Shown here piece by piece: positions 8,477 to 15,377 of a stretch of 15,377 nucleotides of DNA (positions are counted from its first letter, which is position 1; each line of letters opens with the position of its first letter). Below the pieces are notes generated by a model. It saw nothing but the letters and a program-made list of their open reading frames with translations. It was not told where the DNA came from and searched no databases. A program made the translations under genes and the position numbers. The stretch lies in the IMG/VR virus record IMGVR_UViG_2713896899_000015; one strand, 5' to 3'. Origin of the DNA: a virus (lineage: Duplodnaviria; Heunggongvirae; Uroviricota; Caudoviricetes).

Positions 8477-8725
8477 TTATTGTTTCACTGGATCCCGCAT
8501 TCTGCGTCTTATTTTCCACAGATATTCGATCATCGCTTCCACCTGCTCACGGTTGGTTGCGAAAATTTCCCCGGTCAGTGAGCTGCGCAGAAAATCATGA
8601 TGATCCACAACAAACAACGCATCGGAAGAAAGCAGACGGCGATATTTTTTTGCTGTCGTGGTTTCCAGATCATCAAAACCATGAAACTTTTTATGTTGCT
8701 GAACTTCTTCAAATGTCACTGGCAT
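8477..8725 (-). CDS. Hypothetical protein (82 aa)
   Basis: ATG at 8723-8725 with a GGGGG Shine-Dalgarno 5 nt upstream. Overlaps the ProQ/FinO gene stop by 10 nt. No recognisable motif. Confidence 0.55.
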   Translation of the reverse strand: MPVTFEEVQQHKKFHGFDDLETTTAKKYRRLLSSDALFVVDHHDFLRSSLTGEIFATNREQVEAMIEYLWKIRRRMRDPVKQ

Positions 8726-9246
8726 GTATCCCCCTTTGCTGCCCGGCGCTGGCGCTTGTGCTTCTCATTCAGCGCCATCAGCCGCGTTTCTGCCTCCTGC
8801 TGTTCCTGTGGTGTCACTTCCCCACATGGCTGGCCTTTCAGGTCGTAGCGTACCCCACCAGCTATTAAGGCGCGGTAATAGCGCGGAGACTGCGCATAGG
8901 ATGCCAGCGTCGCACGTAATGCCCCCGGCCCGAATGTCAGCCCCCTGGCGGCGATATCCTGCATCAGGTCGTCGAATATCCCCACCTTAAGCGGCTTCGG
9001 TGCTTCCCGGCTGAATAATTCTGGCCACAATTCAATAAGGCGGTTAACGCGTCTGCGGTTTTTGCGCTGGCGTTTGGTCATATGCCGCCACGCTGTCGCC
9101 CCTGTGGGTTTCTGCTGTGCGTTCTGATTGCCGGGTATCACTTTATGCGCCGATGTGGTTTTATCCTGCTGCTGTGCCGCCTGCGGTATTTTCTGCGGCG
9201 TGCCGTAAATGCCTTTCGGTTTTCGGTTAATGGTCATCTTTGTCAT
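8716..9246 (-). CDS. ProQ/FinO-domain RNA-binding protein (176 aa; alternative start at 9237)
   Basis: C-terminal half KPLKVGIFDDL...LRATLASYAQSPRYYRALIAGGVRYDLKGQPCGEV aligns by eye with E. coli ProQ (RPLKIGIFQDL...LRSALRLYTSSWRYL...RVDLDGNPCGEL). Basic, low-complexity N-terminus. Confidence 0.85.
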   Translation of the reverse strand: MTKMTINRKPKGIYGTPQKIPQAAQQQDKTTSAHKVIPGNQNAQQKPTGATAWRHMTKRQRKNRRRVNRLIELWPELFSREAPKPLKVGIFDDLMQDIAARGLTFGPGALRATLASYAQSPRYYRALIAGGVRYDLKGQPCGEVTPQEQQEAETRLMALNEKHKRQRRAAKGDTCQ

Positions 9247-9944: not shown

Positions 9945-12080
9945 TTAATCTTCTTCGCTTTCTGGCTGGAACATCAGCACGTAAAAAACATGCTGCTTCC
10001 CCCCAATTTTGCCGAGCGCCTTTTTCTTGTAACGGCGATCGTTACCCGCTTCCAGCATTCCGGCAGCACTCAACGCGCGGGCAAAGTGAGACGGATTAAA
10101 TCCCTGTGCTATCTCACCCTCAAATACATGCGGGAATGTGTAAAAACGGAACTCGTCATCTTCGTTTCTGATACTCCCCTTTCTGTATCCGGCAAGCTCT
10201 TTAATCGGTAAATCACGCTCGTCAGAGTTGGGCCAGGGAAGGTATCTGCTGAATCCGAACGACGCTAAAAAAGCCTCTGCCTGTTCAACCATCTGTTTAA
10301 ACTCCCTGTTACCCGTGCCGAACTCCTTCACCCAGGCATTAAAATTATGCTGTATGGCATCGCGGCATTCCTGCTCATCCCAGCCAGTAACATGACCTGA
10401 AAGCACAAGCGCGGCCTCCAGTATGGCAAATCGCTCCCCCACACGGTGAACCTGTTCGCCGTAGCTCTCCGGTATCAGGTTGCGCCACCGCTCACGGCAT
10501 GTCCTTACCGTGTCCTTTGCCTCCTGCTGGTGTTCTGCCAGCCATTTAACCCACTCACGACCCGCTGCCCCGTGATTTTCTGTCCAGGCATCCTTTAACG
10601 CGTCTGCGTGCGCCTTTCCGGTGCTGTATTCGTGAAATTGTGTGGCTTTTTCCATCGGCACGTTAAGCAGACGGACAAGCTGCCCCGCTTTAATTTTTAT
10701 CCCTTCCGTTTTGAGGAATGTTTCAACGTCCATTTCTCCGGTACTGATTGCCACCGTGCGCCAGTGTTTGATCTCCCTGTTGCCGCCGTCCTTCGCCCCC
10801 TGTAATTTCCCCGAACCGTTAAACAGCGTATAAGCCGACGTGGACACTTCCCGCGCGTTTCCGGCCTGACCTATTTCATCCAGGGGTAACAGCCCGTCAT
10901 TGTGCGCCTCTGCCTCGTTGGCGATGCCTAACGCTGTACCGTACCAGGTCAGCCGTTGCGCGTCCGGCTCTCCCCATAAACTGGATGCGATGTTCTGTGT
11001 GGTGGTTTTCCCTGCCGATGACTGTTCGAAAAGATGTACCCCGAAGCCGTCAGCACCCACCAGCCCGATTAATGGTGCGGATAATGATACCGCCACACCC
11101 AGCATCATGGACGGATTACCACCAGCCAACCGCGCAACGGTATCGCGCCAGCCCTCCGCCGTTCCTGCCACGGAATAACCATTAACAGCGGCAGTTTTTC
11201 CGGTAAACAGGACTGGCTTTTCGCAATCACCAATGACCGAACCGTCCGGCATGATGTACGCGCCAAAATGCCAGCCCGTTGTTGTGCTTAACTGCCATTC
11301 CTCATGGTTTCCGCTTAACTGCATCCAGTCAGCCAGGATAGCCCTGTATTTACCGTTGGTTGTCACATTCAGTCCGTGGTCTTTCAGCAGCCGCCAGCCG
11401 TCACGGTCGCCAATGCCCCCACACGGGATCGCCATTGTGATGACTTCATGGTTTGCTGGTTTTTTCCAGCGCATCACGCGGTAATGCTCTTTGCCGATTG
11501 TCCCCGTTCCCAGTAGTTCAAGCGGGGAACATAACCACGTCTCAGGCCGGATAATTTCGCCTGACTGCTTATCCACTTTTGGCGTTACCCAGAAAACACC
11601 ATCGGCACGGCTTTCAACGCGGGGCTTTAATTCATCATCACCCGGGCTTGTGGTGGTTTTTTTCTTTACCGGAAGTTTAATTACCAGATCTGCAGAAAGA
11701 TTCTGACGCTCAACGTTCAGATAGCGCCGCCAGTTCTCGCATTTCTGACCGTGCATTCCTTCAGGGTAAAAATTCGCATCCTGAATATCTGCCGCCGCCA
11801 GCTTCTGACCGATCTTTTTGGTCTCCACTAAATCCAGTTCTCCGGCCTGGTACAGCCTTACGCGTTTTTTCCCATCCGGAACAATTTTCAGCGCATCAAG
11901 TTCGGCAAGCTGATTTGGCCCAAGCCACACAGGCGGCACATCATCGCCAGATGCGGGGCCGTCCTGCTCCTGCCACTGTTTTGCATGTGCCCACGCATCA
12001 CTACCCGCGAAAATAATTACCTCTGTGTCTTTGTGTTTTATTCCGCGTGGTTGTTTTTTTACGTTCGGTGCCAGTTTCAT
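9945..12080 (-). CDS. Replication initiator, primase/helicase-type (PICI Pri-Rep / P4 alpha-like), 711 aa
   Basis: Large multidomain protein with a P-loop (SSAGKTT) in the central region. Directly upstream of the iteron origin. ATG at 12078-12080 overlaps the preceding gene stop (ATGA). Domain family not verified by search. Confidence 0.75.
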   Translation of the reverse strand: MKLAPNVKKQPRGIKHKDTEVIIFAGSDAWAHAKQWQEQDGPASGDDVPPVWLGPNQLAELDALKIVPDGKKRVRLYQAGELDLVETKKIGQKLAAADIQDANFYPEGMHGQKCENWRRYLNVERQNLSADLVIKLPVKKKTTTSPGDDELKPRVESRADGVFWVTPKVDKQSGEIIRPETWLCSPLELLGTGTIGKEHYRVMRWKKPANHEVITMAIPCGGIGDRDGWRLLKDHGLNVTTNGKYRAILADWMQLSGNHEEWQLSTTTGWHFGAYIMPDGSVIGDCEKPVLFTGKTAAVNGYSVAGTAEGWRDTVARLAGGNPSMMLGVAVSLSAPLIGLVGADGFGVHLFEQSSAGKTTTQNIASSLWGEPDAQRLTWYGTALGIANEAEAHNDGLLPLDEIGQAGNAREVSTSAYTLFNGSGKLQGAKDGGNREIKHWRTVAISTGEMDVETFLKTEGIKIKAGQLVRLLNVPMEKATQFHEYSTGKAHADALKDAWTENHGAAGREWVKWLAEHQQEAKDTVRTCRERWRNLIPESYGEQVHRVGERFAILEAALVLSGHVTGWDEQECRDAIQHNFNAWVKEFGTGNREFKQMVEQAEAFLASFGFSRYLPWPNSDERDLPIKELAGYRKGSIRNEDDEFRFYTFPHVFEGEIAQGFNPSHFARALSAAGMLEAGNDRRYKKKALGKIGGKQHVFYVLMFQPESEED

Positions 12081-12364
12081 TTCTTACCCCCTGCGACCAG
12101 CATTTCACGGATTTTGCGGATATAGCTTGCTGCACGTTTCTGATTTACGGCTTTACGATGGCCCACCAGCGTGAAATCACGCCGGAATTGATAAACAGGC
12201 ATCACGCAGTCATATTCGTAACCTTCACGGCGGTAGGTGATGCGCCGTTCTGCCACGCCTTTAATCGTTACCATGCCGCCATATTTATCGCGGTAAATAT
12301 CGCCGTTCATAAATTCAGGACGAGCGGGGCCGCTGGCAGTAACGCCAGAATTTTTATTTTTCAT
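12077..12364 (-). CDS. Hypothetical protein (95 aa)
   Basis: ATG at 12362-12364, GGAG upstream, ATGA coupling to the primase gene. Basic. No recognisable motif. Confidence 0.6.
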   Translation of the reverse strand: MKNKNSGVTASGPARPEFMNGDIYRDKYGGMVTIKGVAERRITYRREGYEYDCVMPVYQFRRDFTLVGHRKAVNQKRAASYIRKIREMLVAGGKK

Positions 12365-12369
12365 GTTTT

Positions 12370-12597
12370 TTATTCTCCGGTGTGCTGCGCTTTATTATTC
12401 TCGTGAATTGCCATCACTGTATTTAATTCATTAATTACTGGCGTTAATAATGTGTGCACGGCAGAAAACATCATGGGATATGATTCATCGCCATTTTCCT
12501 GCACTTCCATTAACTTAAGTAATAATGCCTCCATTTCCTTTGCGCGGATTAATGCGTTTTCAGAATGAACAAGAACATCAAAGGGTATTTTATGCAT
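12370..12597 (-). CDS. Hypothetical protein (75 aa)
   Basis: ATG at 12595-12597 overlaps the upstream gene stop (ATGCATAA). Helical-looking, acidic. No recognisable motif. Confidence 0.6.
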   Translation of the reverse strand: MHKIPFDVLVHSENALIRAKEMEALLLKLMEVQENGDESYPMMFSAVHTLLTPVINELNTVMAIHENNKAQHTGE

Positions 12598-12793
12598 GAC
12601 TCACCCCCTGACGAATACGGGCGGCGAATACCATCACGCAGCCAGCCGGGGATTGCTGGCGTGCTTCCTGTTCGCTGGTGGCCTCAATGGTAATCACGCG
12701 CGGTTGTGCCGTGCTCAGGGCGATAAAACGCCAGATATATTTATTCAGGTTGTGCGAGTCCCGCCCTTGCGGGTGTGTGGTATGATTTAACAT
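12590..12793 (-). CDS. Hypothetical protein (67 aa), first gene of the leftward replication operon
   Basis: ATG at 12791-12793 preceded by a strong GAGGT Shine-Dalgarno. The 306-aa ORF in the track is this frame extended upstream through the divergent promoter and RHH gene, which is judged spurious. Confidence 0.55.
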   Translation of the reverse strand: MLNHTTHPQGRDSHNLNKYIWRFIALSTAQPRVITIEATSEQEARQQSPAGCVMVFAARIRQGVSHA

Positions 12794-12992
12794 AGCTACC
12801 TCGATACGCTTTCTATCGTTGGTGGTTAGAAGCCCTGCGAGTGATAACGACACTTGCGGGGCTTTGCATTTATGCACCTTGACAACCTCAAGGTGTGGCC
12901 CACTATATTCTTTAGGTGTGGCCCACGTCAAGAGTTTTATTTGTGCTTTTTCTGTGTATACTGTCCCCCACCAATCCAACAGAGGAATAGAA
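12794..12992. promoter_or_regulatory. Divergent promoter/operator region between the replication operon (-) and the RHH gene (+)
   Basis: Consensus -35 TTGACA at 12879-12884 with candidate -10 TATATT at 12904-12909 (19-bp spacer). Two perfect 13-bp direct repeats aggtgtggcccac at 12891-12903 and 12914-12926 overlap the -10 and start region. TATACT at 12957-12962. GAGG Shine-Dalgarno before the RHH ATG. Confidence 0.5.
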
Positions 12993-13172
12993 ATGGCAAC
13001 GGGTACAACAAACGCAAAATCACAAGCTCTAAAGGCTCGTGTACCACACGAAATAGTAAACGCCATGGAATCAGTGAAAGAATCAGGCGAAAGCACATCA
13101 CAATTCATCATTGCGTCAATGCAAGGCGAGATCAAACGCCGCCAGCGACGCAAAGCCAAGGAGTCAGAATAA
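12993..13172 (+). CDS. Ribbon-helix-helix (CopG/Arc/MetJ-like) DNA-binding protein, 59 aa; candidate island repressor/regulator
   Basis: ATG at 12993 with GAGGAATAGAA Shine-Dalgarno. Sequence KARVPHEIVNAMESVKESGESTSQFIIASMQGEI fits the RHH pattern (beta-strand RVP, helix, G.S.S..I, helix). Confidence 0.65.
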   Translation: MATGTTNAKSQALKARVPHEIVNAMESVKESGESTSQFIIASMQGEIKRRQRRKAKESE

Positions 13173-13229
13173 TCACTATCAGCGCCGTGGTGTGAGTAAC
13201 TACGGCGCATTGCTATGCAGGTGCTTACC

Positions 13230-13409
13230 ATGAACGATAAAGAGTTAAAAAAAACACCACCACAAACACTGAAAGGACAGCGCAAAAAGATAGCGCATGA
13301 GCATGAATCAGAAAGATTCGCCCCCTGTTCTTTTGCTCTTGAGAAATTCCTTAAGGAGCACAAGAAAAAGCTATCATTGCAAACCAGGGAACGAACCGAA
13401 TCTGACTGA
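13230..13409 (+). CDS. Hypothetical small Lys-rich protein (59 aa), co-transcribed with the RHH gene
   Basis: ATG at 13230 with AGGTG 6 nt upstream. Followed by an intrinsic terminator. A stem gcgccgt/acggcgc (13182-13208) lies between the two genes. No recognisable motif. Confidence 0.4.
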   Translation: MNDKELKKTPPQTLKGQRKKIAHEHESERFAPCSFALEKFLKEHKKKLSLQTRERTESD

Positions 13410-13473
13410 TCACATTGCCCACCAGCCAGCAAATCGCTATGATGTTCGGGCTTATGTTTAGTGTTTTCCCATT

Positions 13474-13501
13474 GGCGACCGCCCCCGGTCGCCTTTGTTT
13501 T
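13474..13501 (+). terminator. Rho-independent terminator of the RHH operon
   Basis: Stem ggcgaccg (13474-13481), loop cccc, stem cggtcgcc (13486-13493), then tttgtttt. There is no U-tract on the other strand, so it is unidirectional. Confidence 0.7.
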
Positions 13502-13520
13502 ATGTGTCATATACTCCCCT

Positions 13521-13730
13521 TTACGCTGCCTTGCCTGAATTAATGCGATCCCGGCTTTTAACCCATTCCATAACCTCGGACAGCAGCCAACCTACAGAAC
13601 GACCGCCCAGATTAAGGCGTGACGGAAATCGCCCTTTTTTCTCCAGTTCGTAGCGTGTAGTGCGACACACTCCAGTTAACTTACGACATTCATCCTCACG
13701 GATTACGCGATCTTCATTTATTTCACGCAT
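13521..13730 (-). CDS. alpA: AlpA-family (MerR/excisionase-like) transcriptional regulator, 69 aa
   Basis: LTGVCRTTRYELEKKGRFPSRLNLGGRSVGWLLSEVMEWVKSR matches the AlpA/Xis helix-turn-helix pattern (..T.Y.....G.FP....LG.R.VGW...EV.EW...R). ATG at 13728-13730 with AGGT Shine-Dalgarno. The track's longer ORF starts at a GTG (13817) with no Shine-Dalgarno. Confidence 0.8.
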   Translation of the reverse strand: MREINEDRVIREDECRKLTGVCRTTRYELEKKGRFPSRLNLGGRSVGWLLSEVMEWVKSRDRINSGKAA

Positions 13731-13817
13731 ACAAAAACCTACATAAAAATTACGTATATAAACTTTTCTCTTAGCTGTAGATATATGAGATCGGATATTA
13801 CTTAGATTCTTTTTCAC

Positions 13818-14138
13818 CTCTTAAATTAAAAACACAACCTTGCTAAAGGCTTGTTCGCTAAGGTTCGTAGAAGCTCGTTAGTGTTTAAAATCGTGTCACG
13901 AGTTTTTAAGCGACGCAACAAAAAATGTCGTCACTTGGCATTACGCTTGAATTATCTCATTAAAAACAAATAGATAAATCATCAGGTATTGGAACAATCA
14001 AGAAATAGCTAATAAGGGTTTAGTAGGGTGCATTTCAATTTTTTCGATGGTTGACAAATAAAAAATTAACGAACTTGACCGATATTTAGCGTTTTATTCA
14101 CGGCTGTAATCTCTTAAAGAAAAAACAGCCGTAATTTG
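13818..14138. promoter_or_regulatory. AT-rich int-alpA intergenic region with inverted repeat acggctgt-N17-acagccgt (14100-14132); probable alpA promoter/operator
   Basis: 321-bp gap at about 70% AT between the int stop and alpA. Contains TTGACA at 14051-14056 (+) and TTGACA on the minus strand at 14133-14138, plus an 8-bp-arm inverted repeat. No confident -10/-35 pairing could be resolved by eye. Confidence 0.3.
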
Positions 14139-15377
14139 TCAAGAATTTTGGGTGTAAATTCGCGGGGTCATAACAACGATTTTTTCATCATTGTTCTGGA
14201 GAAGCTCGAGACGGTCTACCCATAGATTAAGAGCATCACGTTTTGCATCAAGATAACGGGAGTGGTTATAGACTCGTTGCATCCCTGGCATCTGGTGGGC
14301 TGTAAGCTGCTCGACAATATGCGGATCCACGCCTAAATCGTTCAGCATGGTTGTAAATGTGTGCCGGATATCGTGTAACGTCCAGGGGGCTTGATTAATT
14401 CGTCTGTGCGCTGTTCTTCCGTACTCTGCTACGGATGATTGCCCTTTCAGTTCTCCAAGCAATAAGCCCGTGTGCCTGTTCTTCTCCACCAGCTGCGTGA
14501 CGAACGGCAGAATGCTTTCCGGTATTGGTCTGAATATGGCGACCTTCGTTTTGCTGTGCTCCTTCGGTACTGTCCAGAGCATTTCCTTAAAATCCCACTC
14601 CTGCACCTCAGAGCGCCTTAGCTCAGTGGTACGGCATCCAAAAACAATCAGGAGGCGAATTAGGGCGCTGTAGTACGGCGGGAAGATTTTTTCATCCAGT
14701 GCGCGGAGTAGTTCCCCAAGCTCTTTGTTTGTCAGTACACGCTCACTTATTTCTGCTTTTTTCCCCACATCACCTACGACCATATCATCAAGAACGTTGC
14801 TGATTGCGTATCGTCGTTTTCGGCAGTACTTAAGCGCCTGTTTGCATACCTGTAGCAAAAATCCGGCTGATACCGGATTACGCTTAGCAAGCTGGTCAAA
14901 ACAGGCCAGCCAGTGGCGTAGCTCGCATTTTTCCAGTGGCATAGCGCCAATCTGGCTAATTATGTGTTTATTGATCCGGCTTTTCAGTGATTCGTAGTCA
15001 GTGCGCTTTTCCTTTGCGTACGATTCAAGCCAGTAAGTGAGCGCTTCCTTAACCGTCACGGGGGCTAACGCATCCTGTACAGCATGATTAAGTTCATAAC
15101 GCGGATTTTTCCCCTCAGCCAGCCAGGCGCGACACTGTGCCGCTTTTTCCCTGGCAGCTTTCAGGCTCAGATCGGGATAATTGCCCAGCCTCAGACGTTC
15201 CGGTGATATCTGCCTACCAGTTCCGGCCCTGTAAGTGAAATACCAGGTTAACAGGCCATTGATTGAATGCCTTACGCTAAGGTTGCCACCATCATTAAAA
15301 AAGGTGCTTTTTGTGGTTGGTGATCCGCTTAATTTTCGTAAAAGAGTGTCGCTAAGTCTATGAATTGCCCTGCTCAT
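14139..15377 (-). CDS. int: Tyrosine recombinase / site-specific integrase, P4-like (412 aa; start codon on the window edge)
   Basis: C-terminal catalytic region HDIRHTF...LTAHQMPGMQRVYNHSRY contains the H-x-x-R and terminal Tyr nucleophile context of tyrosine integrases. Size is typical of P4-family integrases. The ATG occupies 15375-15377, so a further upstream start cannot be excluded. Confidence 0.9.
   Translation of the reverse strand: MSRAIHRLSDTLLRKLSGSPTTKSTFFNDGGNLSVRHSINGLLTWYFTYRAGTGRQISPERLRLGNYPDLSLKAAREKAAQCRAWLAEGKNPRYELNHAVQDALAPVTVKEALTYWLESYAKEKRTDYESLKSRINKHIISQIGAMPLEKCELRHWLACFDQLAKRNPVSAGFLLQVCKQALKYCRKRRYAISNVLDDMVVGDVGKKAEISERVLTNKELGELLRALDEKIFPPYYSALIRLLIVFGCRTTELRRSEVQEWDFKEMLWTVPKEHSKTKVAIFRPIPESILPFVTQLVEKNRHTGLLLGELKGQSSVAEYGRTAHRRINQAPWTLHDIRHTFTTMLNDLGVDPHIVEQLTAHQMPGMQRVYNHSRYLDAKRDALNLWVDRLELLQNNDEKIVVMTPRIYTQNS

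Follow-up and report, generated by a model that had tools for sequence, protein, structure and literature searches.

The 15,377-bp virus record IMGVR_UViG_2713896899_000015, here called the window, is a 15.4-kb capsid-forming phage-inducible chromosomal island (cf-PICI) of the E. coli type. This analysis concerns a divergent region within it, in which a gene for a 59-residue ribbon-helix-helix (RHH) protein, named rhh here, faces the operon that carries the replication and packaging genes. The comparison set consisted of 56 related loci from GTDB species genomes together with E. coli relatives, and most counts are over 60 loci. The features on which the argument rests are the following.

12993-13172, plus strand: rhh, encoding the 59-residue RHH protein of the YlcI/YnfO family, the candidate immunity repressor.
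12590-12793, minus strand: Icd-like gene of 67 residues, a homologue of P4 kil that heads the operon (NCBIfam phage_ICD_like, E 1.5e-19).
12902-12931, minus strand: P_L, a predicted sigma-70-type promoter of the kil/replication/packaging operon, with TTGACG (12931-12926), an 18-bp spacer and TATAGT (12907-12902).
12957-12962, plus strand: TATACT, the predicted -10 of the rhh promoter, at -36 in 46 of the 60 loci and of the form TAnnnT in 58.
12891-12903: site O1, with an 11-bp core GTGTGGCCCAC at 12893-12903, overlapping the last two bases of the P_L -10 and the predicted start site.
12914-12926: site O2, with its core at 12916-12926, within the P_L spacer and abutting the P_L -35, its centre at about -48 from the predicted rhh start site.
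12961-12971: site O3, a degenerate copy, CTGTCCCCCAC, with two core mismatches, directly after TATACT and fused to the rhh -10.

The rhh reading frame runs from ATG 12993 to TAA 13170-13172, with an AGAGGA Shine-Dalgarno sequence upstream, and its product scores 67.4 bits against the NCBIfam YlcI/YnfO model (NF041551, cut-off 30) over residues 9-50. The initial annotation, made from the letters alone, had already called this an RHH protein, and both the family model and structure prediction agree: a single-chain AlphaFold2 (AF2) model built with 42 homologues has a predicted local distance difference test (pLDDT) score of 88.5 and shows an extended N-terminal segment followed by two helices. 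The protein has the strand-helix-helix fold of the superfamily in about 45 residues and the G-x-S/T/N turn that starts helix 2, here G32-E33-S34, with E33 invariant and S34 nearly so among the 42 homologues. In our own reading of the sequences, R16-V-P-H-E and G32-E-S align with R-W-P-R-E and G-R-S of Arc. Homologues form 55 clusters in Enterobacterales, are 50-98% identical and share 12 invariant residues. Among the 42 homologues, Pfam matches to RHH families were weak and spread over several of them (CB_ParB_C, PSK_trans_fac, Arc, HicB_lk_antitox, RHH_5), and DUF3950 (PF13132) was matched neither by the window protein at E<=0.1 nor among the 42 homologues. The sole Pfam match of the window protein, Lyase_1, was judged spurious. 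In the literature searched we found no published function for the YlcI/YnfO family, and where YlcI/YnfO is listed for cf-PICIs, in a 2026 survey that covers Enterobacter satellites, it is called no more than a 'prophage-associated protein' (PMC13612085).

Upstream of rhh, the 13-mer AGGTGTGGCCCAC is present exactly at 12891-12903 and 12914-12926, 23 bp from start to start with a 10-bp gap, as had been reported before, and there is no further exact copy on either strand of the window. By our estimate, roughly 3x10^-4 such pairs would be expected by chance, given about 2x10^4 pairs of positions within 200 bp, divided by 4^13. The pair had been described as two operators; family-wide, there are three 11-bp sites of the form (G/C)TG-N5-CAC, of which two lie on either side of the -10 in the operon's leftward promoter and the third, usually weaker, abuts the conserved TATACT in the 60 islands. 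The sites of the window start at -102, -79 and -32 from the rhh ATG, and the family positions differ by a few bp, with O2 fixed at -76 in essentially all loci and O3 at -31. The middle site adjoins a conserved CGTCAA/CTTCAA and the last is fused to a conserved GTATACT. Within each 7-15-kb locus the 10-mers of the sites are confined to this region, with no extra copies elsewhere in the islands.

Which promoter these sites serve was assigned differently at first. The repeats had been placed over the -10 and start region of a plus-strand promoter for rhh with TTGACA at 12879-12884. That hexamer is part of the inverted repeat CACCTTGA/TCAAGGTG and is not conserved as a promoter: it scores at least 9/12 in only 5 of the 60 loci, and the one -10 that could serve it, TATATT at 12904-12909, stands 19 bp away and is missing from the output of the consensus scan. 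We rejected it as the rhh promoter, for which the conserved element is TATACT. The repeats primarily bracket the -10 of P_L on the minus strand, which is the best sigma-70 consensus match of the region (10/12) and whose -35 (TTGAnn) stands at a fixed position in 54 of the 60 loci, with a TAnnnT -10 at 17-18 bp. O2 fills the P_L spacer and O1 covers -8 to +3, a placement that would occlude RNA polymerase; the geometry of O3 relative to the rhh -10 matches that of O1 relative to P_L. The first operon gene, the Icd-like gene, does start divergently about 200 bp away, as had been stated (start at 12793 on the minus strand, 199-bp intergenic region).

The inverted repeat itself, CACCTTGA-N5-TCAAGGTG, is a perfect 8-bp repeat at 12875-12895, the right arm of which overlaps O1, and its CCTTGA...TCAAGG motif recurs in a subset of the relatives. 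In loci with an inverted O1, AGGTG/CACCT arms flank the core, which suggests a full site of 15 bp.

The N5 core differs between loci (TGGCC and TCAGC are two of its forms), and it changes jointly with residues 11-15 of the RHH beta-strand, which read QALKA in the window and, for example, KKLEA in another class. Across 19 beta-strand classes, cores are identical where the strands differ by at most one residue and near random (3-3.8 of 5 positions) where they differ by three or more. Within a locus, the O2 and O3 cores have a mean Hamming distance of 0.74 of 5, compared with 3.25 in the null (p<=1e-5), and O3 is often weaker than O2 by 1-2 core mismatches, which suggests graded occupancy. The co-variation gives strong indirect support to the idea that side chains of the beta-strand read the bases of the site. 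It also bears on whether a different protein might bind the repeats, be it AlpA, the primase at iterons or an origin, or a centromere binder of the ParG/omega type, with rhh as a mere neighbour. Ten family members do weakly match Pfam CB_ParB_C, a centromere-binding RHH family, and the omega repressor binds direct repeats; however, the sites change with the RHH beta-strand and not with AlpA (99% identical in the E. coli SaT040 locus, L001) or the primase type, no ParA gene is present, and the sites occur only at the two promoters. We consider such a different binder extremely unlikely.

Further evidence that protein and sites belong together comes from a segment that is exchanged between islands.

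12826-13122: specificity cassette, comprising the terminator hairpin of a candidate small RNA (below), O1-O3, the promoters and rhh codons 1-43.

Between the window and L001, DNA identity is 37-73% exactly over 12826-13122 and about 100% in the flanking icd and alpA; the int, alpA and icd products are 99-100% identical and the RHH protein only 59%, with different sites. Another locus (L059) has the same sites as the window next to an unrelated alpA. The same cassette, about 97.5% identical, is found in 71 genomes of E. coli, within islands whose int, alpA and primase genes are unrelated, and it is present in islands with each of three replication-protein types (DUF927, D5_N/DUF5906 and AAA_25). 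E. coli O26:H11 FWSEC0001 is one strain that has it. As judged from these alignments, the sites follow rhh and not the neighbouring genes, and the exchange is the behaviour of a phage immunity region. Since the core changes with the beta-strand and the cassette moves as a unit, the repressor idea is well supported, and so, on the same comparisons, is the reading of the repeats as operators of the RHH protein.

In indexed public assemblies, 552 blocks contain an identical RHH protein, again in islands with three replication proteins. The basic C-terminal tail G-E-I-K-R-R-Q-R (residues 45-52; 13125-13148) is invariant or nearly so in all specificity classes, with the DNA-reading strand varying, and one recombination boundary falls within the region coding for GEIKRRQR (window, L001, L059 and L063-L066 compared). 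The invariant tail could be a shared contact, with the DNA backbone, in cooperativity or with a partner protein, and it could at the same time be a hotspot of recombination.

The genes downstream of rhh are relevant to a different role of the protein, which the initial annotation had named as the alternative.

13230-13409, plus strand: ORF2, a basic open reading frame (ORF) of 59 residues in the same frame as rhh, with a match to phrog_21027 (unknown function), found in the E. coli subgroup only.
13474-13493, plus strand: a good terminator, located after ORF2.

According to that alternative, the RHH protein would be a type II antitoxin, ORF2 its toxin and the repeats an autoregulatory operator. 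ORF2 is present in only 5 of the 60 loci, all of the E. coli type, and is not downstream of rhh in more than 50 others, a distribution that disfavours the pairing. In addition, ORF2 has no Pfam or NCBIfam toxin match and is separated from rhh by a 57-nt gap instead of overlapping it, the operators lie on the promoter of a divergent operon, and the RHH protein carries no toxin-binding extension beyond its basic tail. An antitoxin role is very unlikely. A 10-bp stem-loop lies directly after the rhh stop codon (13182-13208).

On the other side of the operators, the DNA from the icd start up to O1 (12793-12876) is conserved throughout the family, and two hairpins form in its fold.

12778-12876, plus strand: candidate cis-antisense RNA of about 80 nt, opposite the kil/icd ribosome site, promoter element included; its parts are an extended -10 TGgTATGAT (12778-12786), hairpin 1 (12793-12828), a terminator-like hairpin 2 (12829-12865) and a U-rich tail.

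The stem of hairpin 1 holds the complement of the icd start codon, and its loop includes, in the consensus, a CUCC that complements the icd Shine-Dalgarno sequence. Hairpin 2 has a stem of 15 bp, and the tail after it is moderately rich in U (mean 4.8 U in 10 nt). In the alignment, 96.6% of cells are paired, compared with 37-49% in slid controls, and compensatory changes occur in 17 of 24 pairs. The plus strand is the more stable in all 53 loci folded (mean -36.2 vs -23.1 kcal/mol), the RNAalifold consensus is -31.2 kcal/mol for plus and -4.4 kcal/mol for minus, and in the minus orientation the non-Watson-Crick cells are 95 A.C and 4 G.U. We dropped the idea of a 5' untranslated-region structure of the operon mRNA given this wobble-pair asymmetry and the strand-specific energies, which together with the covariation point to an RNA read from the plus strand. 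We take it to be a candidate antisense RNA, about 80 nt long, that would act in cis on the Kil-type gene. No Rfam family matched the structure. Such an RNA would have analogues in the sar RNA of P22 and in FinP. FinO-type proteins bind the terminator hairpins of antisense RNAs, and the ProQ/FinO-domain protein of the island could be a putative chaperone of the small RNA.

The whole region, including rhh, is also crossed on the minus strand by a long open frame.

12590-13510, minus strand: read-through ORF of 306 codons (eta-like), with its ATG at 13510 behind the Shine-Dalgarno sequence AAGGGGAG, 10 nt after the alpA stop.

This frame passes antisense through all of rhh, the operators and the small-RNA region and continues in frame into the Icd-like gene. 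Over the intergenic region of about 200 bp it is free of stops in 49 of the 60 loci, against 0.87 expected from shuffles, and the other two frames are open in 0 and 1 of the 60. Antisense to rhh it is open in 60/60 loci, the other two frames carrying about 5.6 and 2.8-3.8 stops there, and over the next 110 nt it is open in 48/60. The third codon positions of rhh and of the antisense frame coincide. Close relatives differ by indels in multiples of three, and no codon bias is seen among substitutions that lie outside the overlap. The upstream part ranges from 31 to 225 residues and is rarely alignable. What is conserved here is the openness of the frame, not a protein. Some GenBank records call the ORF as a gene of 332-342 residues, and in PGAP its fragments are pseudogenes.

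The conserved openness and these gene calls are what would favour taking the long minus-strand ORF as the real gene and the 59-codon plus-strand ORF as a by-product, which is the least probable of the explanations weighed here. The plus-strand protein is conserved (50-98% identity, 12 invariant residues), passes a curated hidden Markov model and has a confident RHH model, its Shine-Dalgarno sequence and promoter are conserved as well, and substitutions fit the plus frame (position 2 < position 1 < position 3); the minus-strand product is not conserved outside the overlap and looks non-protein-like.

A Kil-type gene nested in frame in a long ORF that starts at the end of alpA/vis is the arrangement of P4, where ORF88 (vis) is followed at once by eta; the CI RNA and an internal promoter lie within eta, and kil forms its end, in the same frame. 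The P4 Kil region also matches phage_ICD_like (E 7.8e-21). For P4 eta/kil, translation from an upstream promoter overrides immunity (PMC10111431). The RNA elements of P4 immunity, the C4/CI RNA and its isrK/seqA-type targets (C4, c4-a1b1 and isrK in Rfam), were not found in the window, in 12300-14200 even at E<=5, nor in 13 relatives at the gathering threshold, and all three were recovered at 8420-8705 in P4 as a control. With the scaffold otherwise P4-like and these elements not found, the RHH module stands where P4 has its RNA immunity. PHROGs labels the Icd/Kil-like family (phrog_6196, phrog_1743) 'transcriptional repressor', a label that was not taken as evidence; we suspect, unchecked, that it descends from an obsolete 'cI gene product' ORF in the P4 record, and if so it is misleading. 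The initial annotation had noted neither the read-through ORF nor the antisense RNA, nor that the scaffold is homologous to that of P4.

From sequence comparison as a whole, the 59-residue protein is probably a dimeric, Arc/Mnt-like RHH immunity repressor of this cf-PICI that shuts P_L, regulates itself and is overridden by read-through. The earlier proposal of a master repressor or autoregulator at a position like that of Stl or cI keeps its position, divergent and next to alpA and int, and its idea of a repressor, and loses the promoter assigned to it. In the switch that we propose, the beta-ribbon would read the variable 5-bp core of the (G/C)TG-N5-CAC sites. During quiescence, RHH dimers at O1 and O2 would block P_L and keep the operon of kil (icd-like), replication and capsid genes off, binding at the weaker O3, which overlaps the -10/+1 of the rhh promoter, would give negative autoregulation, and the antisense RNA would mask the kil ribosome site on transcripts that escape. 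Upon induction, a helper phage would turn on alpA, as has been demonstrated for related islands (PMC6092414), and transcription from upstream would continue into the 306-codon ORF, translation of which, by analogy with P4 eta, would shield the transcript from Rho and from the antisense RNA. Expression of kil, replication and capsid genes would then be independent of P_L, and the read-through transcription, running head-on against that of rhh, would flip the switch, once more by analogy with eta.

Several observations weigh against this proposal. The rhh promoter has no conserved or recognisable -35 in the 60 loci, and its activity is therefore assumed. The O3 match of the window, with its two core mismatches, is at chance level when taken alone. 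A TAnnnT -10 lies about 7 nt upstream of the candidate small RNA in 52 of 53 loci, inside coding sequence, so that its conservation is confounded and is not independent evidence; in the window, the U-tail is weak (5 U in 10 nt) and the terminator scan gave no report of it. The read-through frame is broken in the intergenic region in 11 of the 60 loci, and the read-through layer is thus not universal. Finally, overexpression of AlpA alone induces EcCICFT073 (PMC6092414).

That last result, along with the necessity of AlpA in EcCICFT073 and EcCIEDL933, also favours a smaller role for the protein, as a local fine-tuner that limits leaky expression of the toxic Kil-like protein and regulates its own gene, with AlpA alone deciding between quiescence and induction. 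It would suit this role that the first gene under P_L is a Kil/Icd homologue and that an upstream read-through route exists. However, the replication and packaging operon lies in its entirety behind P_L, and no further conserved promoter was seen; the module, moreover, has diversified into 19 or more specificities and, like immunity regions, moves between islands as a cassette. Such a local damper of kil is the main open alternative to a master repressor, and we regard it as unlikely.

The immunity repressor reading would be of consequence beyond this island. Gram-negative PICIs had been characterized in the initial annotation as AlpA-activated, which agrees with the published account, in which AlpA alone is known and a global repressor is 'unclear' (PMC6092414). 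It is conceivable, and we advance it tentatively, that in many Gram-negative PICIs and cf-PICIs an exchangeable and hitherto unrecognised module replaces the RNA immunity of P4. It would consist of an RHH repressor, which has a three-site operator and occurs in 19 or more specificities, a cis-antisense RNA masking the ribosome site of kil, and a read-through ORF that is translated without constraint on its sequence and has the repressor gene embedded on its opposite strand; an AlpA-driven override would defeat both repressors and collide with repressor synthesis. If true, the repressor side of the Gram-negative PICI switch, long sought, would be in hand, it would explain the silence of the islands despite a toxic Kil-type gene, and it predicts immunity or incompatibility groups among co-resident satellites. 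The pairs of residues 11-15 with a 5-bp core would be natural, orthogonal, small repressor/operator pairs, of use for an RHH recognition code and for engineered PICI 'drones', and a repressor gene lying wholly antisense in a conserved open frame would clearly exemplify, in nature, genes that overlap on opposite strands. Taken singly, the elements are of kinds already known: RHH repressors, three-site operators, immunity cassettes, nested eta/kil genes and cis-antisense RNAs. In the literature searched we found no YlcI/YnfO-type protein as a repressor of Gram-negative PICIs or cf-PICIs, no replacement of P4 RNA immunity by a protein plus a cis-antisense RNA, and no repressor gene antisense within a conserved read-through frame.

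The remaining genes of the island, all on the minus strand, are these.

14139-15377, minus strand: int.
13521-13730, minus strand: alpA, the analogue of P4 vis and the activator known in Gram-negative PICIs (Pfam Phage_AlpA, E 2.2e-16; PMC6092414).
Minus strand: a 75-residue ORF, then a DUF4222 gene.
9945-12080, minus strand: DUF927 primase.
Minus strand: single-stranded DNA-binding protein (SSB) gene.
8716-9246, minus strand: ProQ/FinO-domain protein (Pfam, E 4e-25).
Minus strand: capsid, protease, portal, connector, HNH and terminase genes (Pfam matches).

With int, alpA and a primase, its own capsid, portal, protease, connector and terminase genes, no tail or lysis genes and a length of about 15 kb, the element has the gene content of a cf-PICI, the prototype of which is described as 15.4 kb long in the cf-PICI preprint. 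An annotated near-relative (L060) sits between clpS and yljB/cspD. The layout is shared across 60 related islands from many Enterobacterales, and hosts of the cassette include Escherichia, Citrobacter, Serratia, Pectobacterium, Dickeya, Yersinia, Xenorhabdus, Proteus, Morganella and others. The RHH protein had no tblastn match in 50,697 phage records, and the sole match of the Icd-like protein among phage records is one 16.5-kb 'phage' that resembles a satellite. The Rfam int-alpA motif (RF02996) lies between int and alpA in some relatives (L018 8842-8911, L021 8461-8529 and L029 8251-8319) and was not detected in the window.

Among known proteins, the closest by family are YlcI (DLP12) and YnfO (Qin) of E. 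coli K-12, since the window protein passes their common NCBIfam model. YlcI of K-12 matches Pfam DUF3950 at 1.9e-20, unlike the window protein, and BLASTP between the two gives only E 0.15, so by sequence it is a distant relative only; K-12 ylcI is likewise small and divergent, in its case from nohD, a homologue of the terminase small subunit, across a 388-bp gap (L062 2752-2946). Stl of the Staphylococcus aureus pathogenicity islands (SaPIs) and Rpr of Gram-positive PICIs occupy the same position, near int and divergent from the replication operon, and have the same silencing role that is proposed here (PMC6092414). Stl has an unrelated fold and no homology to the RHH protein, and proteins of the helper phage relieve its repression, whereas for the window, where int and alpA are co-oriented with the operon, we propose a read-through bypass driven by AlpA.

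The likeness to lambda CI is a functional analogy only. Lambda has a three-part operator, OR1-OR2-OR3, between divergent promoters, and the two systems have in common two strong sites on a lytic-type promoter, a weaker third site on the repressor's own promoter and an exchangeable immunity cassette. The protein fold and the site architecture differ, and activation of its own promoter from O2 would be speculation for the RHH protein. The immI region of P22 contains the RHH repressors Mnt and Arc, the divergent promoters Pant and Pmnt and the sar antisense RNA. The family described here does not belong to it at the sequence level (one of 42 members matches Pfam Arc, E 0.012), and it differs in having three 11-bp (G/C)TG-N5-CAC sites in place of Arc/Mnt operators, the kil-replication-capsid operon of a satellite as its target, and a repressor gene antisense inside a long ORF for which translation is proposed. 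The immunity region of P4, with its PLE and PLL promoters, has the same order as the window: an alpA/vis homologue comes first, a long ORF starts where that gene stops, a promoter lies inside the ORF, and a small Kil-type protein is encoded in its frame. In P4 the immunity factor is the C4/CI RNA, whereas in the window this part would be played by a protein repressor with its operators and by a candidate cis-antisense RNA from the opposite strand.

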